Shown one piece after another: positions 1-46,722 of a DNA stretch of 64,000 bases. Numbering within the stretch: the stretch's first letter is position 1; every line of letters begins with the position of its first letter. The stretch comes from Welwitschia mirabilis (taxonomy: Eukaryota): contig JBOZIK010000001.1 of assembly GCA_051453625.1 (NCBI GenBank), forward strand, positions 45,846,160 through 45,910,159, in the 5' to 3' direction. The translations under genes and the position numbers were made by a program. The notes under the pieces are model-generated. The model was given only the letters and a program-made list of their open reading frames with translations, made no database searches and was not told the DNA's origin.

Positions 1-529
1 CTTCATCTTTCTCAAGTATGTGATCATGTGGGAATTTTGTGTTCAAAAACAAAAAAAAAGAGAGAAAAGAAAAAAAGAAAGAAAGAAAAAAAGGAAGTAA
101 AAAACATGATGTCCTATTGCAAGTACATCGAGACAAATATTTTTGAGAGGAGCCTTTGGTAGTGTAATATGCTAACTGTGGAAACTTCACTGGGGGGTCA
201 GTTGATCATGCTTCATAGGTCTTTACTCCTCTGATAGTGGTTGCACTTCCTTTATCATGGCAAAAGAAATAAAACCCTTAGTATTCCCACTTGATCATTT
301 CACTTTTGGAGATTCCGGTAAGTTTGTAGGTAGAAATAGATGAGTCCATTTCTCAGTAACTTTTGGTTTTAACTTTTATTATTCTACACACTTAACACTT
401 TGGATATCATCATAACCACTGCCTTTTCGAATGAAATTTATGGAGTTAATACATTTTGTCATGTATATTTGCTCAAGTGATGTTATGATGTTTTCCTTTG
501 GAGTTTGCTATGTTAGTACTTATGATAGG

Positions 530-1060
530 TAAACAATCTTCTCTTTGTTTCTTATGTCTATTTTTACTTTGATTTTCTTCTGTTTTCGAGTCTCTTATTT
601 CAAAGTCATTTTTGCATTTTTATATTTTCTCTTAGGACTTTAATCATTTAGTTTTTTTTTAATTGTTTACTTATAAGTCCCTTATTAGTTATTGAGNNNN
701 NNNNNNNNNNNNNNNNNNNNNNNNNNNNNNNNNNNNNNNNNNNNNNNNNNNNNNNNNNNNNNNNNNNNNNNNNNNNNNNNNNNNNNNNNNNNNNNNNNNN
801 NNNNNNNNNNNNNNNNNNNNNNNNNNNNNNNNNNNNNNNNNNNNNNNNNNNNNNNNNNNNNNNNNNNNNNNNNNNNNNNNNNNNNNNNNNNNNNNNNNNN
901 NNNNGATAAACAATCATCTTTTTGTTTCTTGTGTCCATTTTTACTCTAGTTTTCTTTTATTTTTAAATCTACTATTTCAAATTCATTTTTGAATTTTCTT
1001 ATTTCTTCTTAGGACTTTAATCCTTTATTAGTTTTCTTACTATTCAATTATGAATTTCCT
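530..1060. repeat. Diverged direct repeat (~150 bp visible per copy) either side of an N gap
   Basis: TAAACAATC..TTTGTTTCTT.TGTC.ATTTT...TCTTAGGACTTTAATC occurs at ~530-650 and again at ~907-1025 with many substitutions. Confidence 0.7.
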
Positions 1061-1708
1061 TATTGGTTCTTGAGTTCTCAACTCTCTCATGCTTTTATTT
1101 TCCTGTTTGAGCACATTTATTCTTTCTTTCTTATAGATTTTCAACCTAGATAGTCTATTTTCTCTCGCCATAGTTTTTCCTTTTTTATGTGCTTTTAGTC
1201 TTCTGTCTCTTTCCTTTTCACGATTTAGCAATTTGGGACATATTGCATATTTTAAGTGGGGGGCAAAGAACAAATATTTTTAGTATTCTTAAATATTTTT
1301 GAAAATTTATGAGAATCATTATTGTAGGTCCTTCTTCTAAGCTAGTTGCCAAAATAGGATTCATTAATTTTTACATGATTATCTTTTTATTTGAATGTTT
1401 ATCATAGTGGAGGGCTGTTTATTAGTCTTACTTAATTAACAAAAAAATTGATTTCTGTCACAAGTTCCAGTTTTGAAGATCTTTTGAGGAGCTTATCGTC
1501 CAGATGATAGTACCAGATGACTGACTTCTAATGCTTAGCAGGTATGTCTGATCAGTTTTTGAATTTTTCAGAAAGTCAGTCTATTATTGGTATATGTTGC
1601 AAATCTTTTCCAGATGCTTTCTTTAGATATCCTAGCTATTTTTATTATTTGAAACATTAGCTTACAAATGTGGTTTACTACCTGCTTTTATCAAGGACTG
1701 ACAAGGCT

Positions 1709-1718
1709 AAGTGAGGGG
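1709..1718 (+). other. Polypurine tract (PPT)
   Basis: AAGTGAGGGG lies 3 nt upstream of the LTR start at 1722. Confidence 0.7.
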
Positions 1719-1721
1719 CTA

Positions 1722-2827
1722 TGTTGTATTGCTAACTTACATGTATTTGATAAGATATTCTAAGTTGTTTTGCAGGTAAATTAGCACATAAATGCTTAGT
1801 TCTCATGATAATGGAGAACAGGGATGAAAAGGATGAAAATATGCAATTTTTAGATAAATTATAAGCATTTGGCACAGATGTGGATAAATGACATTTTGGA
1901 TAATGATTCCTACAAACAACAAAGCGATCAGACTGACTAAAGTTCGATAAAAGACCATCATCCACCTCATTGTCCAGACGTCAGTTGTAGATGACATCAT
2001 CAATAGTCAACAACACTCTATATGCAGTTCATAAGTAGTTTAACTAAAGTAGATCAAGAGATCTATCTATCAAATAACATCGTCTTATATATCATCCAGA
2101 TGACTAGTAGAATGATACTGTTTTCTTATACTTTCATCAAATGTTTGCCTGAGTTGTCACCACTTTATTGTGACTTTTCTTTACATGTTAGCTAGGGTTT
2201 TTTCTATACTCTTCTATTAGTTTCCCTTTCTTTTTTATCTATAAATAAGGGTCTCCCCCTCAATCTCTAATCATCTTCGACAGTACCTGACATACCCATG
2301 AAAGGAGATCATGAGATAGGAGAATCATTCTATAATTGCAAAGAGACGTTACCTTAGTGTTGGGTGGTGTTTTCTCTATTGAGGAGTAGCTACTTTATAA
2401 TACGAATGTTGCATGCATTTTAATATGAATTATCTTCTTTTGTGTTTAATATATGAATGAACTTCTCCCTCATAGTTTATGTTATCTAAGATTCGGTGAT
2501 AAGCTTCTTTTATTATATAGATTATGAGGGCAACATTTATCAAGGTTGAGCTTAGTTAGTTTAAGTGCATCCTTATTTATTTTCTTAGATTAGTTTTGCA
2601 TAAGAATGTTTTATTTCAATTTCATGCATTGCAATTTATTTCAGTAGATTAGGGTTACATAATTTTCTCTTAAAAGCAACTATTTTATTTCCATACCTTA
2701 GCCTTCGATGGAATTATGACATTCGGATCACTCCCATCTATACTAGTGTGTTATGTTTGGGCATATTAATTGTGATTAATAGGATTCAGCTCAGGACATA
2801 AACATTGCATAAATATGCATCATAATA
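1722..2827 (+). repeat. 3' LTR (family A)
   Basis: Starts TGTTGTA. First ~650 bp align with 19974 onward. TATAAATAAGGGTCTCCCC TATA region at ~2240. The end CATCATAATA aligns with CACCGCAACA at 5899-5908 (deaminated CA end). Confidence 0.8.
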
Positions 2828-3716
2828 AATCACTAATTCATTTTTTACTATTTTATAAAGCAAGCACTAATTCTTTGATGTTGACTATATGTTGGAGGAG
2901 ATATTCATCATTTTCTCCATTAAAAATAGGATGTGCATTTAAATTTTTTAACTTGACATCATCATTAGGAGGTAGACCAAAATAATTTTGGATTTTATAC
3001 TTTGTATTTGTAATTAATTCTTTAAGAGTAATATTAGCATTTGGATTTATGAGGGTAGTAGAGATTTCTATCATGATAGAAGAATCAAGTGAAGCTACTT
3101 GTTTCTATTTTTATATAGAATTCAACATTGTAATAGAACTATTTTCTTTTAAACTTTCTTTTAAAACACTTTCTTTGGAAAAATTAAATTCAAAATAATA
3201 AATGTATAAAAATCTTCTTTCTCAATTATTAGAATATTTTACATACTTGAGATCTACATACTTGGGTTAAGTTCATAGTTGATAAAACCTTCTTAGATGT
3301 TCTCTTTAATCAATAGGCTCTCTCTTTGATATTTTATCTTTTTACTTAATTTTACCATGTTCCATATGCTCAATTCTATTTTTATAGATGTTGTCTCTGT
3401 GGTCATCTAGACAATGTAGTTGGATGTTATAAAAACATAAAAAATTGAAAACAAAAAATGTAGAAAAATAGAATTGTGAAATAACATAAAATAAAAACTG
3501 ACAATCATCCTCTAAGTTATCTAGATGATAGAGGAGATAATAGAAAAATTACTAGTTCTTATGAAAATGAAAAATCCTAATATTCATAGGCTATCATTAC
3601 TATACATCATCTAGATGATGATGTGGATGGTAGGGCATTATTTTTGGAATGAAAATAAAAAAATGTGAAAATAAAAACCTATAATTCTATAATAAAGATA
3701 CAACACTACTGTAGAC
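2828..3716 (-). pseudogene. gag: Athila-like gag N-terminus plus 5' UTR remnant, cut by the family-A element
   Basis: ORF 2853-3074 (TLKELIT...YFGLPP...HPIFNGENDEYLLQH) resembles the Athila gag N-terminus (LPxFxG..NEDP..H). The upstream sequence resembles 21400-21750. Confidence 0.55.
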
Positions 3717-5908: not shown

Positions 5909-8900
5909 ACTATAACTCAATCTAATCATTGGCTATAATAAATAGTGACATGTTAGCAACTTACCATTTAATAACCAATTTAAAGTCATGGAAAATCAAG
6001 TTAATGAAGTGTTTAAAAAACATCATTCATCATAATGAGGGGAGTGCAACCACTACTAAGAGCATAAAGATCCATAAGTAAAAGCAAATCATGACCAACC
6101 GACATCTTAGATTTTTGAGTCTTTAAAAAAATATTTATCATTCCTTATTCCTATTTACATTAAGATGACCCACTCTACAGTGTGTTTTTAGTATCAATAG
6201 TATTTAATTTAAAAGCTAAAAATAATATTTTATTTTCACAATATTTGACTCACAATCAATATACAGATTTTCAAAATTATAGATTGGGTATATGTAAGTC
6301 TAAGCTTTAAGTTAAAATAAAATATTTGCAATGTTATATTATTCTTAGTATATTTCAAATAATATCTTGTGAGGTATTTTAGGTAAATTTGAACTTTATT
6401 TTATTACTAGATTAACTTTCATTATGCTCTTGCCATACATAAAAGTACTTTCACACACTTTAAAAAAAGAATATAACTTTATCTTATTTGATTAGGGTCA
6501 TTTAGATTAATTTTCAATGATATAAAGAGAAATTTATTTATGTGTAACTTAGGCCATTATCTTTCTTTTGAATTTATTTTATCTCTATAATTAATAATTT
6601 AAATTCTATTGAGATGTTACTACATTGGAGTCATTTTCTTGCCTAGGCAAAGTAAAATATAACCTCATGAAAAAAAAATATCGTAATAGTTTAGTGCTAG
6701 AAGAAGGGTCATAGACATAATTTTAACATCATTTGATCACCCAAAATCACAAATATAATGTTGTAAAAAACACTCATGACATAATACCCATGAATAGCTA
6801 ATATTTTTAGGATTTAATCAGCAAAGAGTAAAGGGAAGTAAAATTTTTGAGTTATCATGTTAAGTATTCCATATTTAATGCATTTTTTCCACTATACTTT
6901 TAGTCTAGTTGGTATAATCTTATTATTTTCATTCTTAAATATGGTAATTCCAAGCTTTTTAGAGATTTAGTTTTGTCATATCCCATATTTTGTAAACCTT
7001 ATTTACTTGAATATTAAGTATATTAATCTTTTATTCAAATGATTAATTATCCTTATTTAAAGGCCTTTTCAAAGTAAAATGTCATTTTAAATTAACTTAG
7101 TTTGTAAATTTCATAATTTACTATGAATATAATGAAAATTATGTTAGAAGGTTTTTTTTGAAAAAAGCTATCAAAACATTAAAAAATAGAGAATCCCATT
7201 TTGATGAGGAATTAAAATCACATTATAAGACTAATATATTAAAAATTTTAAGAGGACATAATAATATATTTTGCATCTTATTTAAACTCTTGTTAAATGT
7301 GACAGGTGTACTATATTGTGAATAAACATTTTTTCCTTGTGTTATATGCTTGATAAATTTTTATGCATTTTGAAATAAATGAACTTTTGAACAAGTAGAT
7401 GCACGGTCACCTAAAACTAAGAATGATAAATGAGTAGATTTACTCTACTATGACTTTTATCTTCTTGAGATATGTAAGGGCACTTAGTTCATAGCATACT
7501 CATTGTTTAATCATTGAAATTGAAGAGTTTTTCTCATGATGCAATACGAAACTTTTGATATTTATGCATTTATTTTTTTGATGCATGTCTTGGATTAATT
7601 AAACTTACTTATAAATCTATGAAGGATTATAAAGGAGATAGTATGAGGAAATGATGCATGTAATTAACCTTATTGATTAAAGTAAGATGATTACTCACCC
7701 TAATTAAGTGCATGAGTTATAAATATGATCTTTTTTGTATTCAAATGTAACTTATTACTCATCCCACTTATCAATGCTAAATCATATGATTTTGTAATCT
7801 TGAGCTATGTGCCTTTGTTTATTTATATATAAAAATCCTTTTCTCTCTTGTAAAAGGGGATACTTTTTGACCTTATACAAGTGTATTTCCTTATTTTTTC
7901 TCTCTTTCTTTCATTTTCTTAGTTATAGAGCTTAGAGCTCAGAAGCTTGGAGTTAAGGAACTCTTGAGCTTAGATATTCATCAATCTTCAACTATCAATG
8001 ACTTACTAAACTTCCCAAGTAAGCTCTTTGTTCTTATTATTTAGGTGATTTCCTTTAAGATTCTAGTGGAATTATGTGATATTACATTAGGGAATTATTT
8101 ATGGTTTTTATGCAATTATGTTATAAATATTATTCCCTCCCATTAGTTCTCATGANNNNNNNNNNNNNNNNNNNNNNNNNNNNNNNNNNNNNNNNNNNNN
8201 NNNNNNNNNNNNNNNNNNNNNNNNNNNNNNNNNNNNNNNNNNNNNNNNNNNNNNNNNNNNNNNNNNNNNNNNNNNNNNNNNNNNNNNNNNNNNNNNNNNN
8301 NNNNNNNNNNNNNNNNNNNNNNNNNNNNNNNNNNNNNNNNNNNNNNNNNNNNNNNNNNNNNNNNNNNNNNNNNNNNNNNNNNNNNNNNNNNNNNNNNNNN
8401 NNNNNNNNNNNNNNNNNNNNNNNNNNNNNNNNNNNNNNNNNNNNNNNNNNNNNNNNNNNNNNNNNNNNNNNNNNNNNNNNNNNNNNNNNNNNNNNNNNNN
8501 NNNNNNNNNNNNNNNNNNNNNNNNNNNNNNNNNNNNNNNNNNNNNNNNNNNNNNNNNNNNNNNNNNNNNNNNNNNNNNNNNNNNNNNNNNNNNNNNNNNN
8601 NNNNNNNNNNNNNNNNNNNNNNNNNNNNNNNNNTTATTTATGGTTTTTATGTAATTATGTTAAATATTATTCCCTTCCATTGGCTCACGCTAAGACACTA
8701 GGAAGATATGAGGGATCTCTTGTGCTTGGTGATGTGGGTCATTAATAGATGATTACAGCCAAGTGACTAGGGGATTTACTATTTTTAAAAAAAAGGAAAT
8801 TTGGGTACCCATGTTTATTTTAATATTATATTTTTATTTATTATGCATTAGTTTCATCTTATTAGGGGCAAAATCTAATCCTCAAAATTCTCATTAGGCT

Positions 8901-14299: not shown

Positions 14300-16200
14300 T
14301 TTAAAACAACTCTACCTTTTTAAATACCAGATTGTATGTAATTGAATAATACTTTTAGAAGATATTTATTATTTTAAGATTTCAAGTCAGTTTTTTCATC
14401 CATAGATTATAAGGTGTGACATGCCCTTTAAAGGATTTGCATATGAGTAAGCCTTACTACTGGGTCTATTTTTAACCTCTAGAATATGTCTATATTACAA
14501 CATGTCTTTATTCTATGTTATTTTATCTATTTATTTAGAGATGAGGGTTTGATTGCTAGTAGTGGAAGGCTTGTGTTCTCACCAATATTTAATATTAGAT
14601 TACCCCTAGATATCTAATATAGCAGTTAGTTATTATACCCAATTACTAGGTAAAGGCACTAGTCTAAATAGCAAAAAAGTTGAGGAGGTTTTGTGCAATT
14701 TATCCCTAAAGTCAGATATTGGTAAGTCCTATGTTAGAGTTATCTATGATACATGGATGCAGTTTTGAAGTATTTTGAATTCTTAAATCACTGGCTATGA
14801 AAAGCTTCATAATTGCTATAAAGGTTTTAAATTTTCACTTCTTATTAATAAAGCTAGAGAAGGATACATTCAAGCAAGAAATGATCCGAGGCATGGAGAC
14901 CCTATGTCTTCATTTTAATTTATTTTTGTAATGGAAGTTTTTGGTTAATTTCTCAAGAATTTTAATTATTTTGGCCTCTTTCAAGGATTTACTTTGGCTT
15001 TTGATGCATTCCTAATTTAGGGATGACACCTTTTTATTTTTTAATAAGGCATGACGGAGACATAGGATAAGGCTTATAATGTTTAGATTTTTTCCATGAC
15101 TCATGGACTCCAAACTAATATTGCATAAAGTAAAGCATACAATTTTGTTATACCACCAGAAGTTTTTAATGACATTTATGAGAAGCTAAATGATAAGAAG
15201 TCCACTTTCCTACTGACTATCTGGGCATTTTCATTTTCTTTGGCCATTTAAAAAATAGCTATAGGAGGATGTTCTAGGTAAGATCTTTAAAAGGCTTATA
15301 GGATGGAAATGAAAACTACTCTCTTAAGTTAAAGGGTGTGGCTTCTAAAATCAATTCTGCATGTACTCCCTATCTATGTGTTCTCAGGTTACTAGGCTCC
15401 AATCTTTATTATTAACTACTTGGGAACTTTAAAGAGATTTTTTATGTGATCACACCTTAAAGATCATACTCTTCATTATATTAAGTGGTGAACGTTTTAT
15501 TAATTTCCTAAGGTTGAACATTATGATATTTATCTAATCAACAATGTGAATTTTGTCCTCTAAGGTAAAATTTATATGGCAATTATACATTAGGTAAAGA
15601 CTAGTGGTTCATTTTCTATAAGCTAAACATCTCCATGATAACTGTCAATTTTATAACTCTTTATTTAATTATTCCTGTAAGTCCCATATGAAAAAGTTTT
15701 GGGAAGGAATTAAAGAACGATTTGGTAAGCATATTTGTATCTTGGAAGGCAATATATAATGGGATAATTCTAATTACCATAGTTTAAAGTAACAAAATTT
15801 CATATTATATCATGAAGTCTCAAATAATACTAAATCATTAAGATGGAAGTGGCCCTTGCTATGATAACATTAAGTTTTTCTTTTTTCTCTTTTATTAAGT
15901 GTTTATATCATAGGTTGCCAGTGAGATCCTATATGAAGCATTATGGTATACTCAATGATGATATTTATGCATGTTGTGATAAAGAGGAAGAAACTATTGA
16001 TCATTGTTTACTCCAATGTGATTCCATTCATAAATTTTGGAGTACTTTTAGGAAATTTCTAGATTTATGATTAACACTTATAGTCTCTCATTAATCTTCT
16101 TTGATTTTGACTATCTACATGTGAAATATTAGAAAAAAATGTATTAAAGAATTCTTGTTAAGAATTTTATATCATTATTGAAATGCATGCAACTCCTTTT
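14300..16200 (+). mobile_element. Degenerate plant L1 LINE ORF2 (RT plus C-terminal zf-RVT)
   Basis: DIGKSYVRV (~14715, DxxKAYDRV), RHGDPMSSF*FIFVMEV (~14888, RQGDPLSP), F.DDT (~15020), FPTDYLGI, KRLIGWK, LKSILHVLPIY, and ORF 15843 HRLPV...CCDKEEETIDHCLLQC...FW. Confidence 0.8.
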
Positions 16201-19957: not shown

Positions 19958-19973
19958 TGGTGCCGTTGTTGAG
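19958..19973 (+). other. PBS (tRNA-Asp type), truncated by a nested insertion
   Basis: TGGTGCCGTTGTTGAG versus canonical Athila TGGCGCCGTTGCCGGG(GA); all differences are C>T or G>A. Confidence 0.8.
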
Positions 19974-21091
19974 TGTTGTACCATCAACTTACATGTATTT
20001 GATAGGATATTCTAAGTTGTTTTGTAGGTAAATCGGCAAATAAATTCTTGGTTTTCATGATAATGGAGAACCAGGATGAAAAGGATGAAAATATGCAATT
20101 TTTTAAATAAATTACAAGCATTCTCTGCAAATATGAATAAACAGTATTTTGGATGATAATTTTCTGCAAACACAAAGGGTACTAGACCAATTGAAGATCC
20201 ATAGAAGACCATCATCCAATTCGTCATCTGGATGTCATAGCGGATGACTAACCTACAGGATTATGATAGGTCTGTCGGGTAGTCAAACTGATAGTAGATA
20301 AAGATTTAACTGTAAGTTGGCATCATCTCTAATATTATCCAGATGACTAAGTGGGCGGTACTAATTATAACGTCTACACTGAATGTTCACCTAAACTTTT
20401 GCCACTTATTTTAATTTCTTTTTGCATTGTGGTTGGGTTTTTTTTGCACGTTTTTAGTAGTTTTATTTCATATTTTGAGTCAATAAATAGAGGTCTCCCC
20501 CTTGACTCCTAGTATCTTTAATGCACTAGAGATTCTCATGATAGGAAAGAAAAGGGCGAGAGATCCATCCTTTCGAGTTACAGAAAGATGAGCACTTGGT
20601 AGAGGGCTGAGTATCTTCTATTGAGACCCAGCTATTTTGTAACCCTAATGATTGTTACTTTTTAATATAAAATTCTGGTTTTCTATTTATGTTCATATTT
20701 TTTTTCATGTTAGATTTCTTATATCCCTTATAGTCTAATATTGCCTTAGATCTAGTGATAATTTCTAAGGTGATATAGATTATTAATGGTAACTTTTGTT
20801 AGGGCTGAAGAGCAAAGTAAGGTTAGGATTTATTTGCATTGCATGTTAGTCTAGAATGCATATTGCACTTTGCATGATAGTTTAATTTCCTACTTTGTTA
20901 TTCATTATTTCTAGTTACAAAGATTACTTGAAAAAGAAACCTAAGTTTTCTTATGGATAAACTTCAATGAGATATGACATTTGGGTTACTCCCACTATTC
21001 TAGTGTATTGTATTATGCATAAATATCTATTTTAATTACAATGATAAAATCTATTTGCATGTTAAGGCATGAATAAATACACACTACAACA
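19974..21091 (+). repeat. 5' LTR (family A)
   Basis: Perfect terminal inverted repeats TGTTGTA...TACAACA, homologous to 1722-2827, followed by a PBS. Confidence 0.85.
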
Positions 21092-21094
21092 AAT

Positions 21095-21112
21095 TGGCAT
21101 TGTTGTTGGGGA
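21095..21112 (+). other. PBS (tRNA-Asp type)
   Basis: TGGCATTGTTGTTGGGGA versus TGGCGCCGTTGCCGGGGA; only C>T/G>A differences. Confidence 0.8.
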
Positions 21113-22002
21113 AGGCTATCAAGGAGTACAAAGATTATCATTATTCAGATAAGTATTCCAGATACTTGTCTATTCAGCATTGTATTTTATTACATCTATA
21201 GGTTTTCTGTGTGTGCTGTGTTTTAGTTTGATTTTTTGGATTTTNNNNNNNNNNNNNNNNNNNNNNNNNNNNNNNNNNNNNNNNNNNNNNNNNNNNNNNN
21301 NNNNNNNNNNNNNNNNNNNNNNNNNNNNNNNNNNNNNNNNNNNNAGTCATCCACTCTGTCGTCCACATGACAGTAGGGATAACAGTTGTGTATTTTAATT
21401 TTTATTTTATTTTGGATTTTTTATTTTTTTACAATAAATTGGGTTCTGTAATCTTGTTTTAATGTTTAGACGATAAACCAGATGATAGTTTGTATTTTTT
21501 GTTTTCCTTTTTTTTTGTTTGCATTTTAGTTTTGTTTCTATTTTTTCTGTTTTTTTTTTCTTTATGTCATCTCTTTTGTCGTTCACATGACATACAGGAC
21601 AATGTTTTATTATTTTCTAATCTATTTTTTATTATCTTTTATTTGTAGGATTTTGTGATATGATAAATCTAGAGAAGAAATATCTCAGGGAAAAGAAGTT
21701 GATAGAATAGAACCTTAAAGAAGGACTAGCACTCTTAGAAAAAGAATAATAAAANNNNNNNNNNNNNNNNNNNNNNNNNNNNNNNNNNNNNNNNNNNNNN
21801 NNNNNNNNNNNNNNNNNNNNNNNNNNNNNNNNNNNNNNNNNNNNNNNNNNNNNNNNNNNNNNNNNNNNNNNNNNNNNNNNNNNNNNNNNNNNNNNNNNNN
21901 NNNNNNNNNNNNNNNNNNNNNNNNNNNNNNNNNNNNNNNNNNNNNNNNNNNNNNNNNNNNNNNNNNNNNNNNNNNNNNNNNNNNNNNNNNNNNNNNNNNN
22001 NN

Positions 22003-23687
22003 TACATGCTTACCCAACTTTTAGTGGAGAAGAGGATGAGGATCCCATTTAACATAGTGAAGATATTGAACAACTTATCCTCACCTTAGGAAATTGGAAG
22101 AAAAGAATAATAGATAGAATATATATGGTGATCTTTTCCATCACTTTAAAAGGTAGGGCAAAATTATGGCTAAAAATGTTACCTTACAAAAGCCTTAAAA
22201 AATGGGATCAAGTCTGGAAGACCTTTATAAAAAGATTCATGAGCGAAGAAACTAAAAGAAAAAGAAAGAGGGGGGTAATAAATTTTCAACAAAATCCAAA
22301 TGAAGACTATGCCTCCACATATAAGCATCTCTTCGAAGCAATTCACTGTAATATAGTAGATGCTTTTTTAAAAGTAGAACAACTAAAATACTCTTATAGT
22401 GGATTAACTCCCCACACAAAACAACTTGTAGAGTTTTCTTGTGGAGGAAACCTTTTGAACCTTACCTTAGATGAAGCCTAAACNNNNNNNNNNNNNNNNN
22501 NNNNNNNNNNNNNNNNNNNNNNNNNNNNNNNNNNNNNNNNNNNNNNNNNNNNNNNNNNNNNNNNNNNNNNNNNNNNNNNNNNNTCTTGTGGAGGAAACCT
22601 TTTGAACCTTCCCTTAGATGAAGCCTAAACAAAATTAGAAGAAATTGTGGAGGTTAGTAAAACTTGGTCATCACCAAAATAAAATCAAACGGTAGGCCAA
22701 CTTATCAAAGGATTAAAACAAGTGAAGCAAAACGAGGTAGACAAAAACCCTTCAAATCCTATAAGTGAACTTACAAAAACCTTGAAGAAATACATAGAAA
22801 TAATTCTAAATGCTAAAAATGCCATTGAGAGAAATGTTGTGCAATCATGTGATTTATGTGAGGACAACTATCATGTTATTAAAAATTATCCTCTTTTACC
22901 AAATTACAAAGAGAGAATCTGAGAGGAAGTTTTTAATTTTAATCAACCATCTCAAAACTTATAAAACTAAAACCAATCACACCATAGGTTGAACCCTCAT
23001 TTCCAAAATAATCATCAATGTTTTTGAAACCAAAACACATATTATCAATTAAGTTCATCCAACTTTTAACATATAAATGATCATCTTGTAAATTCTATAG
23101 ATGAAATGAGAAAAACACAAGAGGAAACAAATGCTAAAATAGATAACTTGGTGAGTGTTCTTCAACAAACTTTATTGGCAAACTATGGACCTCAAGGAAC
23201 TTTAGCCATACAACCTTTACCAACCTAAATGAATTAAGAAAAGATTGCAATGTTATGATATGAAGTGGCCAAGAAATGAACCCTCCTCCATGTGAACCAT
23301 CTACCTCCTACAATAATGAAGAGGAAGAGGAAGATGATGTTGAGATTTTAGATGATTACCACTTCCTTCCCCTTGGCAAGAAGAAAAAGAAAAATCCAAC
23401 TACCTCATGGCTTATTAGGCCTAACAACAACTCAACTTTTAATGATCATTTAAAAGCCTTGATGAAAAATGTAAGCATAAGTCTTCCTTTTTAGAAACAA
23501 AACTATGAAAAGACTTAATTATAAGAAAACAAAAACGAGTCATTCCTAGTAAGGTCTTTCTTGACTAATCCCTTATGAATCTAGTATGGCAAAAATCACC
23601 AAAATTTAAAGATTCAGGAGTAGCAACGGTGAATGTTACAGTAGAGGGAAACAAAAAAAAAAAAAAAAAGGAAAAGCATTAATTGAG
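22003..23687 (+). pseudogene. gag: Athila-like gag and start of aspartic protease
   Basis: LPNFSGEEDEDPI*H; ORF 22125 FSITLKGRAKLWLKMLP..SLKKWDQVWKTFIKRF (retrotransposon gag); CDLCEDNYH; NVSISLPFLE; PKFKDSG...KALI just before the N gap. Confidence 0.85.
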
Positions 23688-26310: not shown

Positions 26311-26880
26311 ATGAAATCAATGAAACATTATTTAGTTCCTTTCATTTTAAAAAAAGCTTTCCTTTTCGCTTTCAATGTTCTTATTAATAATAGGAATAAT
26401 CTTATGAAAATATCATTTTGTGATTTGATTATGAATTTGAACATTATTAATATTATGAAATTACTAGGAGAGATTAATAAAGTTAATTTTATTAATATAA
26501 TTCATGGTCCTAAATCTTATCCTCATGAACAAAGTGTTTCTCTTCATTTATCTTTGAAATATGATTTAAATTTTAATTATCAAAATAACCCTACTACTAC
26601 GTTGGATTTATCCTTTAAAGAATTTTTGGAAAACCATAAAAAAGCCATAGGTTGGAAAACATATAATTTTGAACATCTAGATCCTAAAGTTTACATTTCT
26701 CATGTTTTATCTAAATTTTTGAACTCATGTGTGGATCTACTTATATTTTCTCTCCCATTCCATGATTTGACCCACATTCTCATAACATGTTTTAGTCTTT
26801 TCCCTTACATTCCATTGAAAAACATCCTTATAGTCAACCCTTAGATTAGTCGATTCAATTCAAAACAAATAGAATATTAC
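26311..26880 (+). pseudogene. Highly decayed L1 ORF2 endonuclease region (left flank of the tandem Athila insertion)
   Basis: ORF 26311 shows APE-like motif order (ISFCD~GDFN, KEFLE..IGWK~F..DLGF, SCVD~SRID). It appears to continue past the TSD at 48598. Confidence 0.35.
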
Positions 26881-27776
26881 TAATGATGACTAATTTTGAT
26901 GTAAATTTTACTTATTAATAAAATGTTTTTGTTTTTATAATTATACATTTTAGATAATATTAGATGTTTTTCTTTAAAAATTAAGTTAATATACTCACTA
27001 ATCAATAGGTTAGTTAGTTAGTATATTAGTAGGTTAGTACATATATATTTTATGTTATTGAGTTATAGGTACAAAATAATCTTTGGTATAAGGATGTAAG
27101 AGAAGGCTAAGGTGGTAGAAAAATAGTAGCAACCTAAACTATAAACCTATCCCTAAGGAGAAAAGAAAGGAAATAATAAAATAGAAAGAGGTATAAGGAA
27201 GAGCTCACCATTAAAAGGAGGATATTTTTTGTAGATATCTCTAGTAATAGGACTAATAAAAAGCCATCCTACAAAGGGTACAATAGCATCTCTAATGCTC
27301 CAAGTATTGCCTGCAAAGGAAAACACAAGCTTATTAGTACATCTTTGTGTAAAATTTTGATATTTTAATACAAATATGAAAAACTAAAATTTTATGTATC
27401 ATTTTTTGCATGTTTTATTACTTGAAAAAGTAATAATATCTCTGTTTCTCATGTTTATGTAGTTGAACATAAATCAAGATAATTAACAATTCTTAGAAAT
27501 AAGTATTATTCAACATTTTATTTATCATGTTTTTCTACTTTATTTATTTCTCCATAGTTAGATATAGGTAAATAGCAGACTTTATCATTAAATAAACAAA
27601 CCTAAATAGTTCAAGTAACTTCATCATGATATTATTGTGATGATGCATCTTAAACTAAATGGTTAAATCTCAACTAGGTTTTTAGTAAGTCTTTTGTTTA
27701 ATAGTTTATGATTATTTTAGATTAATAATATCATAGTTTCTACATTTTTCTAGCATAACTATATAAGCTTTTATCA
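26881..27776 (+). repeat. LTR 1 of family C tandem
   Basis: TAATGATGAC (decayed TGATGATGAC)...TTATCA, aligning end to end with 39471-40420. Confidence 0.9.
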
Positions 27777-27779
27777 CTT

Positions 27780-27795
27780 TAGTGCTAAAAGGAGG
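27780..27795 (+). other. PBS (tRNA-Asn type)
   Basis: TAGTGCTAAAAGGAGG versus TGGCGCTAGAAGGAGG (complement of the plant tRNA-Asn 3' end); only transition differences. Confidence 0.7.
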
Positions 27796-27859
27796 TCTAT
27801 CTTAAAGCCAACTAGAATAGATAAAGAAAATTATAATCCAATAAGATAGCCAAGGAAAA

Positions 27860-30800
27860 TGACAAGATGAAAAAGGTAGGTGTGTTAAAGACCCTAAAAA
27901 AATATGATCTGGATGAGTAGACTAGAAATAGAATTAAAATCAAAATAGAAGAAGAAGATTTTATGATGGATGAAATCACTCTTTAAAATATTGTGAAAGA
28001 ATAAATATTCCTATGAATTCATATATGAATTATAATAGTGATTGCTTATTATTCATAAACCATCCCTTGTTTAAGAAGAATCTTCATAAGTAACTCAGAA
28101 AAATAAACCTAAAAAGAAATTTGTAATAAGATGCTATTAAGAAGATGATGAATACTTGAAACCTTAAATCATGATACCCATTGGCTATAAGACTTAAGTA
28201 CCATTAATCCTACAATCCTAGAACACTCAAAAAAAGTGAGAAATATAAATATAATGTCAATACCTAGTTTTGGGTGCCAGAATTAGAATAACCCCTACTA
28301 CATTTGAGTTTTTTTGATACCCTCTATAAGTAAATTATCTTGATTTGTAATTTGATTATTTGAGGTATTTCACTTTTTCTTGGCTTAATTTCAACCCATG
28401 ATGATGGTTGACGATTTAAGAGAATAAATTTTAGATAATAAACAAAAATATAATGAAATATTTGATGAATTCATGGATAAATGTATCTCATTTTTAGCTA
28501 AATGTTCTAACCATGGAATTATAGCTAGAGAATGAGTCAGAGATTTACTTAGAGAATTACAAAGTTAAGATTTAAAGGAACAAGGCTTATTATGTAGAAG
28601 CATCAAAACAAAGGATGTTTAAAAAGTAACAAAATTTATTAATTAGTTTTATAACATGAGTTAAGAATGAGATAAGAAAATAAAAATAAGAAAAGTGTAA
28701 ATGAAGAATTTACCCCTAATGAAGATGGTAGTGTATACAATTCAAAACATATTAGTCTTATGGAGGACATAGTTAAAAAAGTGACTAATAGTATGGTAGA
28801 AAAATTTGTTCAGTTAGCTATACAACACTTTAAAGAGAAAAAAGAACTTACATGTAAAGATTGTGAAGAAGATAATCATGAAGGAATAGAATATCCTTGG
28901 ATATGAGAATTTTTTCATTAGTTGGATATTAATAGATTAGTTTTAAATATAGGAAATCAACTTCAAACTAGGAAAAAACCATATCCTTACCAAAGTAGAA
29001 AATAAGAAGGTAAGTTTGAAAGGATTTTACAAAAATGTGTAAATTCAAAAAGACAAAAAAAATATGATTCTAATAGAAATTAGAGAAACAGAGATTCAAA
29101 AAACATGAAATAAAACTCAAAAGTAGACAAGAAAGAAGGGAAAATTCCTACTCAAGCCTAATCAAATCCAAGAAAAGTAATAAGTAAAGATATAACTACT
29201 AGATGTAAAAAATAGATGATGACACATGAATCATAGGAAAATAATCCAAATTTTAATAGTTCTGTAGATGATGAAGAAAAAGATATAGAAAAGAAAGTAG
29301 TAGATGATGCATCAACATATCCTCTATATTTTCCAATAAGAAGCAAACAAATAGAACATCTAAAAATTCAAAAATACATAGAACATTTAATAAAAGTTTT
29401 AGAAGACATAAAAATATCATTATCTATTTTGAAATTACTAAAATACATGCCTATGTCCTAGAAGTAAATGAAGAGCATGTGTTTAAAAAAAAATAATAAA
29501 AATGAAAGCAAGAAATAAAAATAAAAATTAAGATGGTTAGGAAAGATTAAGTTTCTTGAGCTTCCAACAAGTTCTTTAAAATAAATCACATGAAAAGTAT
29601 AGTAATCATAGAACACCTATAATAGATTAAAAATTGATGGCAAACTCAAAGTGAAAGAACTTGTGGATTTAGGAGTAAGCATTAATGTTATATCCTATGA
29701 AACTTATGAGGAACTAAGAAATCCAAAATCGATACCTTACCAAGGAAAAGTATACCTGGTATATGGATCAATAGTAATACTAGAAGGAGTTCTAAAGGAC
29801 ATACCCATCGAACTCTATAGCTTTATCTACTTGACAGATTTCTTAGTGATGAAAACTCAAGCAAATACCCATGCAATAATTTTAGGAAGACCTTCAATGT
29901 CTATGATAGATGGTACTATTTATTCCAAGAGAGGAGTAATAAAAATTAGTCTAGAAGATCTTGAGAAAGGGATTAAGTTATCTAATGTAGCAGTTGTAAA
30001 AGAGATGGTACAGAATATAAAAGCTAGAACTAATGCAATTATGATACAAGAGGTTAGTCTAATGTTAAATAAGAAAAATGAACAAAAGTATGAAGAGGAA
30101 AATTTAACATCTCAAGAAATGGAAAAGCCTCCACTTAAGAAAGGATTAAAATATATTGAAGTATCTCAAAATAGACCTCTGATTATAAATAGCTATTTAA
30201 CTCATTCATAGAAAAGAAAACTTAGAAAATTATTAATCAAAAGAAAGGAGATTTTACTTGGAATCATACTAATATAAAATAAATATATCTAAAACTATGT
30301 CAACATAGAATTTCTTTAGATACTTCTATCAAATCAAATAGGTAATCAAAAAGAAGATGCAACCCATACATGCAAGAAATAATTAAGCAAGAAATTTTTG
30401 AACTCTTGGATGTTAGATTCATCTATCCTAAATCTGATTCAAAATGGATTAGTCTTATTATAGTGGTATCAATAAAAGAAAATAAATGGTTAGTATGTAT
30501 AGATTTTTAAATGTTAAATACTGCAACTTATAAAGATCACTTTCCTATTTCATTTATAAATCAAGTTTTGAAAAGAGCATTTGGACATCAGTACTATAGT
30601 ATTTTGGATGAATATAGTGGATATAATCAGGTCCTAATATATTTCTAGGATCAAGGCAATACTGCTTTTACATGTCATTGGGGTACTTATGCTTGTAAAG
30701 TATTACCATTTGGATTATGTAATGCCCTTGTACTTTTTAAAGGTTATTAAATAGAATTTTTTAGAATATGATAGAAAGACCTATTGAAGTATTAATGGAT

Positions 30801-32950
30801 GATTTTTCAACTTTTGAAAATGATTTTGATAAGTTACTAAATAGATTAAAAAGTGTGTTAGAGAGATGTAAGGAAAAATGTCTAAAACTTAGCTGGTTAA
30901 AAAGTCATCTTATAATGAAAGAAGGCATAGTGCTAGTATCACAAAAAGAAATTGAGACTAATGAATAAAAATTTAAATTCATAAATACATTTTACAAATG
31001 ACCAAATTAAAAGAATTAAGATCTTTCTTAGGGCACATTGGATATTAAAAAAGATTTATATCTAACTTTAGTAAAACTACTAAGGCTTTGAGTAATTTTT
31101 TATAGAAGGATGTGGAATATAATCAGACTGAGAAGTGTTAAAGTAGTTATTAAACTTTAAGAAATGAACTTTTATCAACACCTATTTTATAAGGGTCAAA
31201 TTAGATAAGACCATTTTACATTATAATCAATGCATCTAGTCATTTTATGAAAGTAATTTTAGGGCAAAAAGATAAAGACAACAAAACATTTCCTATTCCT
31301 TACATTAGTAAGAGCTTCAAAACAACTTAGTAAAATTACATAGTAATAGAGAAAGAGTTCTTAGTAGTAGTGGTGGAATTAGAAAAATTTAGGTATTATA
31401 TTTTATCTTACAAAGTAAAATTTCATTCGTACCATAGTGCTATTAGATTTTTACTAAATAAAAAAGAGGTAAATTTGAGAATTATGGGATGGATACTATT
31501 GATGGAAGAATTTGACTTAAAGATTATTGATAAAAGAGGAACAAAAAATGTGATAGCAAGTCACCTCTCAAGACTAGAATTTTTTGATAAAGAGTAGATA
31601 AACATAAGAGATGCATTTCTAGATGAACATAATTTTCAAGTAAAGACCAATCCATGATATGCTAATATATCCAATTTTATTGTGATAAAAAAATACTACT
31701 TTCTATGAATTATTATGAAAAAAAAAGATTATTAAGAGAATTTCGAGGCTATATATGACATGATAAGATTTCATTTAGAAGACGTAAAGATCATGTTATT
31801 TGAAGATGTGTAGAAGAGAATTTACAAAATGAGATTCTAAAGGAATCTCATGAGGGAAAAGGAGGAGGACATTACAGTATAAGAAGAATAGGGATAAAAT
31901 CCTTCATGTGGAATACTACTAGTCCATAATATTTAAAGATTTAAATGTTTATGTCCAGAGTTGTGATAAGAGTTAAAGAGAAGAAGCATTTAACCAAAAA
32001 ATAGAAATGCCACAGTGATGAATTTAGTTAATTAAATATTTTGATGTTTATAGAAGAGATTTTATTAAACTTATTAATCCTTCCTCTTATGAAAAAAGAT
32101 ATATTTTGGTCTATGTTGATTACTTCACTAAGTGGATCGAGGATGAGGTTGTGTCTTATTATTCTTTCCAAACCATAATTAATGATTTTCTTAGGGATAT
32201 TATCTATTGGTTTAGAGCCCCTAAAAGCCTTATATCTAATAGGGGAACCCATTTTACTAGTGAAATATTTAAGAAAGCCTTGACCAAATAAGGAATCTAC
32301 CACATACTCTTTATTGTCTATCATCCTTAATCTAATGACTAAGCTAAAGTGACTAATAGAGAAATTAATAAAATATTAATAAAAATCATAAATATTAAGA
32401 AAACAAATTAGGCTGACAATTTAAATAAATCTTTGTGGGCTTATAGAAAAACTTGAAAACATAGCACAAGGTTTACATTACATGAGTTAATCTATGCAAA
32501 AAAAAGCTATCTTGCTAATTGAATTTAGAATAAAAACATTGAAATTGGCTAAAGAATTAAAATGTAATTTGGATCTAGCTCAAAAGGAATGGATAGAAAA
32601 CATGAATATTTTAGATGAAAACAGAAAACAAGCTCTTTCACTTAAAGAACTCATACAATAAAGAACTAAAATATATTATGATCATAAAATTAGAAAAATA
32701 AATTTTAATATAGGAAATTCTATATTAATCTATAATCCTAAAAAGATCCATTTCAAACAAAAAATATGAACCAATTTGGCAAAAACCCTATACCATAACA
32801 AAAATTTTGGGAAATGGAGTCATAGAGCTATATTATCTTGATAAAAAAGTAACCTACCAAGTTAATAGATAGAGATTAAGAATGTATCATGATTATAAAA
32901 CTATGATACATTATTTAGGGAACTCTTATAGGGTGGAAATAATAATTCCA
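27860..32950 (+). pseudogene. gag-pol pseudogene (GAG-PR-RT-RNaseH-INT, Ty3/gypsy order), copy 1
   Basis: PR ELVDLGVSINVI (~29657); RT KDHFP, VLPFGLCNA, VLMDDF (~30790); RNase H WILLMEEFDLKIIDKRGTKNVIASHLSR; INT HEGKGGGH, VDYFTKWIE, SLISNRGTHF. Many stops and frameshifts. Confidence 0.95.
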
Positions 32951-33208
32951 CTATACTTATGAAATAGAAGTTTTTAATATAGATAATAAAATATGTATTA
33001 TTACCTTAAAGCTTATTTAAACTATCCATTTACTAAGTTGTTCAAGATAAATTTAATGATTGTGAAATAGCATATAACTTAATAAGTCTTTTATAGGGGA
33101 TTGAGTATTATTCATATTAATAAGATTAAGAAGACACATCCCATCACATGGTAGAATACTTTTTTGATGAATGTATAAAAAAATAAAAAATAAAAATAAA
33201 AAACAAAC

Positions 33209-33385
33209 AATGCTCTACTGCAAGTGTGCTAGGGTAAATATTCCTGAGAGGAGCCTTTGATAGTGCAATATATTAGCTATGAGAACTTGACTAAGGGGTA
33301 AATTGAACATGATCTAAATAAAAAGAAAAATAGCTTATGAGTCTTTACTCCTCTAACAGTGGTTGCACTCTCCTCATTGTGGTTA
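33209..33385 (+). ncRNA. Putative structured cis-RNA motif in the retroelement 3' region (also at 108-262 and 45887-46082)
   Basis: Conserved across families A and C, with paired segments AGAGGAG/CTCCTCT, CTACTG/CAGTGG and AGTGCAA/TTGCACT. Confidence 0.45.
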
Positions 33386-33980
33386 GAAAATCAAGCTGTA
33401 AAAAATAAAAAGTTAAGAACAATTATATCCTAGGAGTTATCTGAGACATAACAAGTTACCAATGGTACAATAATATATTAAAACTTAAAAAAAAGAGAGA
33501 AAAATAGTTGTATATGTGATGAAATGTGAATCCAAATATTTTCAATTTAATAGCATGCATAATTATTAAATTCTATTTTAGCAAAGAGAAAGCTTCAAGT
33601 TTTAAAATCATTTCACATTATCTTGATAGGTTCATAAGAAAATAAAAGTAGTAATAAGATAAATTTATTTGCAATAAAATAGTTAAAAACTTTATTAAGC
33701 CAAAAGTTTATTATATCATGTTGCAAAAATAAGATAAAAATATAGTTTACTCTACTAAGAGCTAAAATGATAAACCATTTAACTAAAGCAAATCAATTTT
33801 CAAAGTGGCTAGAAAACTTATTTTTCCTTTTAGAATGCCTATTCTTAGGTGATAATCCCATAGAACTCTTACCTAGGGGTACTAGATGCATCTCACTTAA
33901 AAATACTGATAGCATGTTGATCTCTTTTGGGTGGACTTACTAAAATTTTAGGTAATTATTAGCATTTTATATTATTTTCT

Positions 33981-34462
33981 CTATGTTTTTTCAATCAAAA
34001 CTTAATGTAGCAAGACTAAGTACATGGTTTATACCTTATGATAATTAACCCTTTTTTCTAACACTTGCATTTATCCATCTAACTGGCCTAAGGAAACATC
34101 ATAAGTTGAATTACCTTGATTGAGTTGTTAAGAAATCTTTTTAATTCTTACCCTCAGGTACTTCCCACTAAGTGATGAATCATAAGATCAAAACTTGTAG
34201 GGATAACATTATTTTTAAAATGGGCTTTGCTAGACTTTGTAATAAACATATCCAAGGTATCTAAAACCTCAATAGTTGACTTTTAATCATAATACAAGAA
34301 CTTTTAAACCTCATTCTATGACTTAACTGAAATATAAGGTAATTGGAGGTTTACACTCCTAATACACATGTCCATCTAAGTGGAAATAAACTTAAAAAAG
34401 AAAGGTTTTACCTTTCTAACACATGTGACAATAATGGAAGAATGAGAAGGAGTGAAATCCAT
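33981..34462 (-). pseudogene. Antisense accessory ORF (~160 aa), copy 1, function unknown
   Basis: MDFTPSHS...MDMCIRSV...EVLD...MIHHL...QLNQGNSTYDV...KT*, colinear with 46723-47205. Confidence 0.6.
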
Positions 34463-34516
34463 AACAATTAACTAAGAAAGATGGTAAAGATTGAAAAATG
34501 ATTAAATGAAAGAAAT

Positions 34517-34900
34517 CTAAGGATGAGATGGAGAATGATGAATGATTAAGAAATTTATATCACAAGTCTTTTTTAGTATGATAAGTGTAATCCATTTTAA
34601 GTTACCCAGTGCACATGTGTTTAGTAATGAAGTAAAAGAAGTTTAAGAAACTACATACCTCTTTTATCCAACAACGAGGTATGCCAAGTGGTAGAAATGA
34701 AGCAAGATAGTAATGAGGGAATTCCAAACTAACTAAGGTTTAATCTAAAGTCAGAACTTCATATTAATTTATAATCAATTTAATTTTTTTTTTGAGCTAT
34801 AAGCCTTTGTAAGAAGCCATCAAATTTTATCATCATTTTCAGTTGCAATTGGTTAGTAAAATTTTGTAATTCACTTCTTAAAGAAATATATTTAGATAAT
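34517..34900 (-). pseudogene. Second candidate antisense ORF, copy 1
   Basis: NDDKI*W...FRLNL...YVVS..FTSLLNTCALGNLKWITL...IIHHSPSHP*, matching 47261-47660. Contains frameshifts. Confidence 0.35.
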
Positions 34901-35029
34901 ACTATGCAAACAATAATTAATAGTATAGAGGAAAAAAAATATATTTTAAGAAAGAATAAGAAATGAAAGTTACTTATGTCATTCCTGTGATTAAACATTA
35001 TCATGAGATAGGCCTTCGAAATATGTTTA

Positions 35030-35450
35030 TCCAATTAAAAAACATCAACTCAAACTTAAAACCTAGATTCAGATTTTAAGCCAACTTGATAAACATAGAG
35101 ATCTATTTTTTTCACCTCTATATCTACATAAAGCAACATCACTTGATCGAACGACACTAGCTTAAAGCTAAAACTTTGAGTTAGATTGTAGACTAAGCCA
35201 TTGTGATGTATGTTCAAAACATTAGCTGTAGTTCAAAGATAAAAGTTTGAGTTAGATGTTATGCTAACTTAATTATCTTCTTATATTCTATAAACTTGTG
35301 ATAAAACCAAATCATTTAGTTAACTGATACTAACTTGAAGTCAAAAGTTTAAGTCAAATTTTAAGCTAATCTATTAAGATATAAGTTCAAGAAGTTTACT
35401 GACACCAGTCTAAAGCTAATGCTTTGAGATAGATTTTAAGTCAACTTCAT
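35030..35450. repeat. Five-copy palindromic repeat array, copy 1
   Basis: Units like GACACTAGCTTAAAGCTAAAACTTTGAGTTAGATTTT with alternating long and short spacers. Confidence 0.75.
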
Positions 35451-40420: not shown

Positions 40421-40423
40421 TTT

Positions 40424-45645: not shown

Positions 45646-46722
45646 GACATAAAAGTTTTTAGACTAAATAATAAAGGATGTGTCATTTCCTTAAAGTTTA
45701 TTCAAACTATTAATTTACTAAGTTATTTAAGGTAAATTTAATAATTGTGAAGTAAGAAGCTAACTTAGTAAGCCTTCAATAAAGGATTGTGTATTATTCT
45801 TATTAAGAAGATTAAGGAGATACATTTCATCACATGGTATAATATCTTTTGATGGATGAGTGTATTTATAAAAAAAAAAAAAGCATAATGTTCTACTACG
45901 AGTACACTAGGGAAAATATTCCTAAGAGGGGCCTTTGGTAATGCAATATAGTAGCTATGAGAACTCCACTGAGGGGTTAATTGGCCATGATCTCGATAAT
46001 TAAAAAAAAAAAAGAAGAAGAAGAAGAAATTTTATGGGTCCTTACTTCTCTAATAGTGGTTTCACTCTCCTCATTGTGGTTGAAAAATTAAGTTGTGAAA
46101 AATAAAAAGTTGAGGAACAGTTATGCCTAGGAGGCATATGAGACACAACTAATTATCAAGACTACAACTATATATCATAACTTAAATTTAAATAAAAAAA
46201 GAGAATAATAATTTTATTCAAGTATTTGACGGAATATAAATCTGAATATCTTCAATTTAATAGCATGCACAATCACTAAACTCTGTTTTAGCAAGAGAAA
46301 GCTTTATATTTTTAAAATCATTTTCACGTTACCTCAAAAATTTGATAAATTGTTTAGTTTGAATTTTCTTTTAATGAAATTAATATGTTCATAAGAAAAA
46401 AATAGTCATGAGATAATCTTATAACAATTAAAAACTTTATTAGGTAAGAAGTTTATTACATCATTTTGTAAAAATAAGATAAAAACATTGTTTAAGCTAT
46501 TAAAGCTAAAAAGATAAATCATTTAACTAAAGCAAATTAATTCTTAAGATAGCCAAAGAAATTGTTCTTCCTTGAGAATGCCTAGTCTTATATGATAATC
46601 CCATGTAACTCTCACCCGGGGGTAGTAGATGCATCTCACTTGGGACTCTAATAGCATGTGGATCTCTTTTAGGTGGGCTCATTAAAAGTTCTGGTAAGGC
46701 TTAGTATTCCATATTGTTTTCT

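Follow-up and report, generated by a model that had tools for sequence, protein, structure and literature searches.

The conserved block and its copies

The DNA analysed here, referred to as the window, is a stretch of 64,000 nucleotides from Welwitschia mirabilis (GenBank assembly GCA_051453625.1, contig JBOZIK010000001.1, positions 45,846,160 to 45,910,159 of the forward strand). It is draft plant DNA with a GC content of about 26% and 11 runs of N, crowded with decayed retroelements. A block of about 155 nt recurs in Ty3/gypsy elements with long terminal repeats (LTRs), which are assigned to the Athila clade by the order of their domains and by the region beyond pol. Three copies had been reported from a sequence-only reading of this DNA, and all three were recovered on the plus strand, each behind an A-rich tract: copy A at 106..262 (identified by core patterns and alignment), copy C1 at 33210..33385 (nhmmer E-value 3e-59), and copy C2 at 45888..46082 (nhmmer E-value 7e-59). 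With an nhmmer profile built from these three, a partial fourth copy (family D) was found on the minus strand at about 6025..6135 (E-value 6.2e-7, model positions 91-182), in which the 3' half is retained and the 5' half is diverged with a deletion of about 26 nt. Two core patterns of the block (18-25 nt) each matched exactly the three copies in the window, with none expected from 100 shuffles. The two core patterns gave no match in metagenome contigs; the 18-position pattern hit 12 viral-contig and 59 prokaryote-contig loci, all 71 of which lacked the second core block and were set aside as chance matches.

Copy A is preceded by a polypurine tract of the GAAA/AAAG type of about 60 nt (45..105, plus strand, read directly), and the tracts of family C are short and T-interrupted (33177..33209 before C1 and 45868..45887 before C2, both plus strand); none is evident before D. 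Directly after its tract, copy A opens with an ATG (106-108) of an 18-19-codon frame that ends at TAG (162-164). An ATG with A at -3 stands at this place in all three plus-strand copies, and the loose ends from transcribed relatives show it as well; in A, C1, and C2, the stops of the short frame from this first ATG align with one another. The further landmarks of copy A are AAATATT (135-141, invariant in four of four copies), two core blocks (147-164 and 223-247), a self-complementary 12-mer (196-207; 45975-45986 in C2), and a terminal ATG (257-259). The homology of relatives stops at CATGG, equivalent to this terminal ATG, in the RNA and DNA loose ends behind 33377. In family C, A-rich insertions (about 21-22 nt at about 33312-33333 in C1, and a longer A/GAA-rich one at about 45990-46030 in C2) fall between the two conserved halves of the block; the first reading had placed them inside the paired region. 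The block has a GC content of 37-41% against 22% in either flank, and such a GC-richer block amid low-GC flanks resembles the transition from AU-rich intron to exon in plants.

Two minor features were recorded in or near copy A. The direct repeat CCTYTGRTAGTG occurs twice in the block, which by a rough estimate is at chance level. The frame from the ATG at 257 runs into CCG/GTAAGT (316-322), a consensus-like splice donor 60 nt past that ATG, which may be a chance match, as the families do not align there.

Conservation between element families

The flanks of copy A and of family C could not be aligned by BLAST or tblastx, in agreement with what had been seen by eye, and the block is the sole similarity between the two families. 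In a sensitive self-BLAST of the window, the only matches between A and C were 78-210 with 33177-33311 (71.9%, E-value 4e-12) and 99-210 with 45878-45989 (75.2%, E-value 1e-12), and tblastx of 1-3716 against both C regions returned the block only, plus a few short low-complexity matches at E-values of 0.002-0.7.

Within the block, A differs from C1 by 38 transitions and 6 transversions over 161 aligned bases and from C2 by 28 and 3 over 113, and D differs from C1 by 11 and 2 over 52 and from C2 by 6 and 2 over 48, a transversion divergence of 2.7-4.2% between families as compared with 5.8-7.4% within family C. The two C copies differ by 21 transitions and 11 transversions over 189 aligned bases of the block and by 38 and 24 over 323 of reverse transcriptase (RT). 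The longer local alignment of D with A holds 10 transitions and 10 transversions over 71 bases, and their best 3' block has a single transversion over 41 aligned bases. Divergence is far greater between the RT pieces of D and C, with 43 transitions and 55 transversions (D against C1) and 34 and 52 (D against C2) over 223 aligned bases each, that is, 23-25% transversions. Because the transversions between families are no higher than those within family C, the family masters appear to have carried practically the same block when these copies were inserted, despite the deep divergence of RT. The identity between C1 and C2 is flat at about 0.8 over pol, spacer, and block, and thus these two seem to differ mainly by neutral decay and are uninformative on constraint.

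The conserved, apparently non-coding cis-element shared by different Athila-type families, as proposed from the sequence-only reading, is therefore upheld, its conservation being far above that of the flanks and, between D and C, above that of RT. These observations altogether indicate a real non-coding module where pol gives way to the region beyond it, either under strong constraint or shared recently.

Position relative to pol and the LTRs

The elements C1 (26879-35455) and C2 (39469-48224) are two copies of one Ty3/gypsy element with 78% identity. In C1, the order on one strand is protease, RT, RNase H, and integrase, as in the Athila-clade polyprotein, with a weak Asp_protease_2 (29612-30211), RT_RNaseH (31130-31597, E-value 1e-19), the integrase domain rve (32028-32328), and the GPY/F module at the integrase C-terminus (32777-32887), all on the plus strand. 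The GPY/F module is followed by 24 open codons up to a TGA stop at 32960-32962 (pol C-terminus, 32777..32962, plus strand), and the block starts 248 nt past this stop. The pol C-terminus of C2 (45465..45647, plus strand) ends in a double stop (45642-45647), and the block begins 246 nt past the first of the two. Copy D lies on the same strand as an RT N-terminal domain fragment (6715..6966, minus strand; tblastn with integrase/RT-bearing relatives, E-values down to 5e-12) and 585 nt downstream of it, and because of this short distance the D element must be internally deleted. The position relative to pol is thus known for C1, C2, and D, the pol of copy A falling outside the window. The integrase-bearing library relatives used here were the best 150, which are just 26-40% identical to the decayed query.

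Three LTRs of family C were located on the plus strand, one 5' of the C1 internal region (26883-27757, starting with TAATGATGAC and ending with TATCA), one between the two internal regions (39473-40423, starting with TGATGATGAC and ending with CATCA, followed by TTT and a decayed TGGTGC-type site resembling a primer binding site, PBS), and one LTR tail 3' of the C2 internal region (48444-48600), the remainder of which lies inside the assembly gap 48344-48443. A junction of the type between polypurine tract (PPT) and LTR stands directly 5' of the LTR at 39473, and a less decayed form of it was found in the RNA loose end at 26883, from transcribed relatives. Because of the junction before 39473, the arrangement suggests an array of LTR, internal region, LTR, internal region, and LTR over 26883-48600, in which C1 and C2 may share the LTR at 39473, as 3' LTR and 5' LTR, respectively; another possibility is that copies were collapsed or mis-joined in the draft assembly.

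The homology between C1 and C2 extends 2.1-2.25 kb past the block, the next LTR start is at 39473, and the block lies at least 2.1 kb upstream of any LTR. Since the homology continues in this way, the block is internal and opens the region beyond pol; it is not the start of an LTR. Three other identities were discarded. An LTR start (the U3 region behind a PPT), suggested by analogy with the soybean element Diaspora, would place the block in the LTRs, and it is absent from 26883-27757, 39473-40423, and 48444-48600. A tRNA-derived short interspersed element or other independent mobile unit was rejected, with no tRNA-like match and with C1, C2, and D all on the pol strand downstream of pol. As to a pol C-terminal tail, the tract 45..105 is in frame with the ATG at 106 and gives a Lys/Arg/Glu-rich translation, and the frame is open from window base 1 to 161, but pol of C1 and C2 ends 246-248 nt earlier; no pol tail among the relatives resembles the copy A frame, and a word search among longer proteins was likewise empty, which is weak evidence.

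DNA and RNA reads over the block

One DNA run (X1, Logan contigs) and three RNA runs under the same species label were mapped on C1 at a likeness of at least 80%. The summed contig depth of the DNA run was 545 in the spacer (33104), 5531, 5553, and 7582 in the block (33227, 33228, and 33279), and 994 directly 3' of the block (33453), so that the block stands at 6-14 times its non-coding flanks; the listed pol positions ranged from 1400 to 30800, and the bins beyond 33744 from 390 to 890. The bin of the block has the highest bin mean (32864), above the listed per-position values, and is not relied on since it is probably due in part to the A-rich insert. In the same run many contig joints within 26880-35455 skip parts of the element, for instance from 28669 to 33636, dropping gag-pol and the block, which suggests that internally deleted, non-autonomous derivatives are common in the genome.

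The RNA reads placed numbered 60, 39, and 36 in the three runs, most of them less than 90% alike and hence from relatives. The bin of the block is the best-covered internal bin in all three runs, and the reads there pass contiguously from upstream to downstream, indicating low-level transcription through the block.

A candidate leader for expression beyond pol

Because the block is nearly unchanged between otherwise unalignable Athila-type elements, it is probably a control signal. In retroelements, the site beyond pol is known to house various functions, namely the acceptor and leader of a sub-genomic RNA, translational entry, internal promoters, and signals for export or packaging. Each of them acts through factors of the host or the element that read sequence, in agreement with the near-identity of the block. 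From the position, strand, and conservation of the block, its conserved AUGs and stop, and the low-level read-through transcription, we infer its possible functions as follows. The reading that we favour, tentatively and with low confidence, is that of a non-coding module, conserved within the lineage, which would work in cis as a leader or entry platform on the sense RNA and so serve expression beyond pol. It draws on the distance of 246-248 nt from the pol stop, the GC island, the low number of transversions, the DNA depth, the layout of AUGs and stop, and the 3' boundary. It is preferred because an AUG stands behind an A-rich tract, the stop after it is shared, the homology ends at a second AUG, and a spliced ORF2 (open reading frame 2) RNA has been reported for Athila.

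According to this leader model, the very AT-rich spacer and the purine/A-rich tract would lead up to the conserved AUG in good context, the short frame after it would close at the stop common to all families, and the conserved stretch would end at the second AUG (CATGG), past which the families diverge. Two mechanisms may be considered. The block could act in translational control, by internal entry or re-initiation after the A-rich tract, or it could be the acceptor and leader portion of the spliced sub-genomic RNA that is known for Athila ORF2. Host factors would read the primary sequence of the block, which would explain its near-identity between families.

Athila ORF2 is described as expressed from a spliced sub-genomic RNA (PMC7197481), splice acceptors have been predicted for Athila and BAGY-2 (PMC2829016), and for plant viruses there are reports of purine/A-rich tracts that act as internal ribosome entry sites (IRESs) (PMC5382211). 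The polypurine tract directly before an AUG that characterizes such plant IRESs is clear in copy A and shorter or interrupted in C1 and C2. About 100 nt past the LTR end (27860 in C1, about 40530 in C2), ATGAAAAAG precedes GTAGGT, which stands right after a short ATG frame and plausibly resembles a 5' splice donor; judged from its sequence, it is a possible donor for a sub-genomic RNA.

Several points weigh against the leader model. The A-rich IRES result was apparently not repeated by other laboratories (review PMC5382211). The AG dinucleotides in the 5' part of the block are in a poor acceptor context, with A or G at -3 by our own reading, and among the 60, 39, and 36 RNA reads no splice joint and no pile-up of read starts or ends was seen at the block. 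The ratio of RNA to DNA depth there, as we calculated it, is about the same as in the LTR and integrase bins, giving no sign of special expression. In family C the terminal ATG is GTG, with no open frame after it. The nearest protein-family signal downstream, PF20167, is more than 3 kb from the block and weak (18-22 bits against the curated Pfam cut-off of 45, the sole signal in 35455-39472), and a Pfam search downstream of copy A gave nothing. The copies are just four, all decayed, and two of them are from one family.

Proposed RNA structure of the block

The next-ranked reading, rather unlikely, is that the genomic RNA carries here a sequence-specific structural signal that serves dimer linkage, packaging, or nuclear export. 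If families used one signal in common, they could be co-packaged and could recombine, and the signal would thereby stay uniform. The sequence-only reading had proposed a pseudoknotted RNA with pairings held in all copies. When the 32 pairs of that proposal were scored on the alignment of four sequences, 91.7% of 120 cells were standard pairs, compared with 37.5-56.8% after sliding the 3' partners by 1-3 columns; five pairs change on both sides, two of these in the small hairpin around the invariant AAATATT. The pairings are thus present, but that they go beyond chance is not supported, for the pairs were picked on the same sequences on which they were scored, which inflates measures of pairing and covariation, and four sequences give no power. 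RNAalifold, unaided, recovered the AAATATT hairpin and, without the insert columns, the AGAGGAG/CTCCTCT stem; its consensus, however, did not differ from column shuffles (z -0.75, with 63 of 300 shuffles as good; -0.29 without the insert columns, with 114 of 300; +0.53 on the minus strand). The minimum free energy (MFE) of single sequences was likewise not below that of dinucleotide shuffles (z +0.69 for A, +0.24 and +1.26 for the C1/C2 copies, +0.74 for the minus strand of A). The helix forming the pseudoknot is the weakest of six, with pairing in 85.7% of cells and no pair changed on both sides. A stably folded, pseudoknotted RNA thus finds no statistical support in single-sequence or consensus z-scores, and the proposed folded pseudoknot is unsupported.

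The near-palindrome of the earlier proposal exists: the 12-mer is fully self-complementary, with G-U, on the plus strand of A and C2 and forms just four of six pairs on the minus strand; two loose-end variants also keep it paired, one by a change from G-C to A-U (hand count). However, four of six pairs are left in C1, and about half of shuffled motifs contain a self-complementary 12-mer. The strong excess of transitions fits stems but is equally expected from cytosine deamination of a GC-richer block. The insert of family C at a single site only is also in keeping with a structure. Known retroviral dimer and packaging signals sit in the 5' leader, and pairing of the block with the 5' leader was not above shuffles (66 of 100 and 32 of 100 as good). 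The suggestion of a ribozyme or another known RNA found no counterpart, with no Rfam match at gathering thresholds over the whole window; window positions 1-400, at E-values up to 10, gave just two irrelevant Rfam matches (3.8 and 9), and ARAGORN found no tRNA genes.

A variant with much the same low probability is that the block works across families as an RNA signal recognized by a factor of the host or the element. It would correspond, in plants, to the transport, packaging, or dimer elements of retroviruses, and the different Athila families of one genome would have to keep it letter for letter, like a PBS matched to its tRNA. If true, this signal would be the most conserved part of the element, above RT, and its sharing would let families co-package and recombine. 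In retroviruses, dimer-initiation palindromes are self-complementary in conserved non-coding RNA of the 5' leader, and constitutive transport elements lie after the coding genes; the block differs in showing no significant fold and no sequence or Rfam match.

Promoter and coding alternatives

An internal promoter or enhancer at the DNA level, with poly(dA:dT) excluding nucleosomes, AAATATT acting as a TATA-like box, and the roughly 90 nt from there to the terminal ATG as 5' untranslated region, would agree with the invariance of AAATATT, the A tract just upstream of the block, and the good context of the terminal ATG of copy A, and near-identity between families fits host-factor binding. In Sireviruses, an internal env promoter has been hypothesised, and extra repeated motifs cluster just 5' of env (PMC2829016). 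This reading is nevertheless unlikely. RNA reads reach upstream through the A tract, with loose ends before 33232 of a median of 85 nt, no site of many molecule starts was reported at the very low depth, and a near-identity of 155 nt exceeds the usual need of transcription-factor sites.

Equally unlikely is that coding causes the conservation, either through the short peptide from the first ATG or through a hydrophobic frame resembling a signal peptide or transmembrane (TM) segment (VFTPLIVVAL...) that would start a spliced env-like product. For an overlapping coding frame, which the sequence-only reading had named as a competing cause, the observations point both ways. In the hydrophobic frame (GAG GAG CCT ... 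GTG GTT GCA), A and C have no stop in common, every stop being private to one copy and a single transition away from a sense codon of another; the part of this frame visible in transcribed relatives is open (our reading of loose ends), and copy D retains the hydrophobic reading despite nucleotide changes. A strongly predicted TM domain with two stop codons lies between the pol stop and the PPT of Diaspora (128 bp), and Tpb1-1 has a TM segment just past pol (PMC1142308).

However, an in-frame stop common to the copies stands immediately ahead of the hydrophobic frame, and no conserved ATG follows this stop. The remaining five frames are likewise about half open, and the insert of C2 shifts the frame. 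Between A and C1, the best block holds 1, 3, and 4 differences at the first, second, and third codon positions, respectively, by our count, without position bias. Translations of the block matched none of the 150 integrase-bearing relatives, the best E-value outside low-complexity matches being at least 1, and two word-based protein searches were empty, one of which is weak evidence. Even the Diaspora frame contains stops in a consensus whose gag-pol is intact (PMC1142308). The near-identity includes the would-be third positions and thereby points to a nucleic-acid signal, so that coding is possible but not the main cause.

Possible exchange between families or plus-strand priming

Spread or homogenisation of the module between families, by template switching or recombination, the module itself then having hardly any function or serving only as a site of frequent recombination, would account for a between-family transversion divergence (2.7-4.2%) that is no higher than that within family C (5.8-7.4%). 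It is quite improbable. In C1, C2, and D alike, the location and strand of the block with respect to pol are unchanged; since neither flank can be aligned, every transfer would have required two switches within about 155 nt; and the high-copy island amid low-copy flanks suggests retention.

Least probable is that the A-rich tract is a central PPT for plus-strand priming with the block as its downstream partner (there is a purine-rich tract of about 60 nt directly before copy A, the position is near the middle of an element of 12-14 kb, and a central PPT is documented in a plant copia element, PMC7197481), or that a 3' LTR begins with the block (env-less Diaspora has its PPT and LTR 128 bp past pol, PMC1142308), for what A-rich sequence precedes C1, C2, and D is short and T-interrupted, the tracts are unlike the G-containing junction GAGGAAC/TG at 39450-39474 or the G-richer version in the RNA loose end at 26883, the three family C LTRs do not have the block at their starts or tails, and the internal homology runs more than 2 kb further.

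Other elements in the window

In the PBS check (tRNA-Asp, TGGCGCCGTTGCC...), the LTR of C2 reads CATCA, 3 nt, and TGGTGCT..., of which just the first 7 bases fit with C>T allowed, and the 19-mer PBS of FIDEL gave no match at up to three mismatches. Better decayed PBS-like sites of the tRNA-Asp type, from other elements, were located at 21095 and 19958. The 230 nt after the site at 19958 (19958-20218) share 82% identity with 1734-1964, and the site at 21095 (21095-22478) is followed by a Retrotrans_gag ORF (22053-22481); the elements at 19958-20218/1734-1964 and at 21095-22478 are further Athila-like fragments, without a copy of the block.

Directly before the gap 48344-48443, the stretch 48233-48343 contains a run of about 25 T and then a G-rich purine stretch with TTGGGG; it has no homology to C1 and does not resemble the PPT junction at 39450-39472. 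A direct repeat of 1.4 kb with 75% identity (60783-62202 and 62245-63669, nearly adjacent) is adjoined by a pol-like fragment on the minus strand (60111-60377), and the repeat at 60783-63669 may represent the two LTRs of another element or its tandem duplication. An ORF at 15834-16070 with a zf-RVT match (E-value 3e-7) points to the remnant of a non-LTR (LINE-type) reverse transcriptase.

Relation to known systems

To our knowledge, the lineage-wide non-coding signals of plant LTR retroelements comprise the PBS, the PPT, LTR junctions, and, in Sireviruses, a set of motifs. Wright and Voytas (2002) reportedly predicted a splice acceptor in Athila. The motifs of Sireviruses (Ty1/copia) are similar to the block in being short, highly conserved, and non-coding in a divergent plant lineage, and some of them cluster 5' of the env-like gene and have been discussed as regulatory (PMC2829016). 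They are, however, PPT copies, LTR junctions, and repeated CGG-CCG boxes of copia elements (PMC2829016), whereas the block is a single unit of about 155 nt beyond pol in gypsy elements and contains no internal repeat beyond chance. The junction motifs of ATHILAfinder are likewise lineage-specific conserved non-coding sequences of ATHILA, and the C elements show a related LTR end, T/CATCA, 3 nt, and TGG...; no internal block beyond pol is mentioned there (bioRxiv 10.64898/2026.03.20.713144). The spacer of soybean Diaspora and the start of the region beyond pol in Tpb1-1 belong to the Athila/Calypso clade, lie directly past pol, and have a TM-like translation broken by stops; but the 128-bp Diaspora spacer abuts the PPT and 3' LTR (PMC1142308), whereas the block, compared here by description only, is 246-248 nt from pol and kilobases from an LTR.

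The acceptor and leader of sub-genomic env/ORF2 RNAs in Athila, BAGY-2, and retroviruses also lie between pol and the extra ORF, where conservation for host factors is expected (PMC7197481, PMC2829016, PMC7264820), but no junction read was seen at the block and its candidate AGs are weak in context. As in A-rich IRESs of the crTMV type, a GAAA-type polypurine tract stands directly before an internal AUG, beside a small stem-loop; the viral A-rich tract itself is said to suffice, a contested result (PMC5382211), whereas here the tract is variable and the block following it is conserved. No description of the block was found in the literature on ATHILA junctions, Sirevirus motifs, FIDEL, Diaspora, the REXdb survey, and extra ORFs (reviews), the key Athila4/Calypso paper and supplements being outside this scope, and three core strings of the block did not occur in the literature text searched.

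The evidence, consisting of four decayed copies and one read mapping, justifies a survey, not a functional claim. In such a survey the block would be usable as a seed to find and classify decayed or non-autonomous Athila copies, and if a host factor reads the block, the block would point to that factor. An internal block that changes less than RT between families would be a new handle on how Athila-type elements express and handle RNA beyond pol, the env-like region included.

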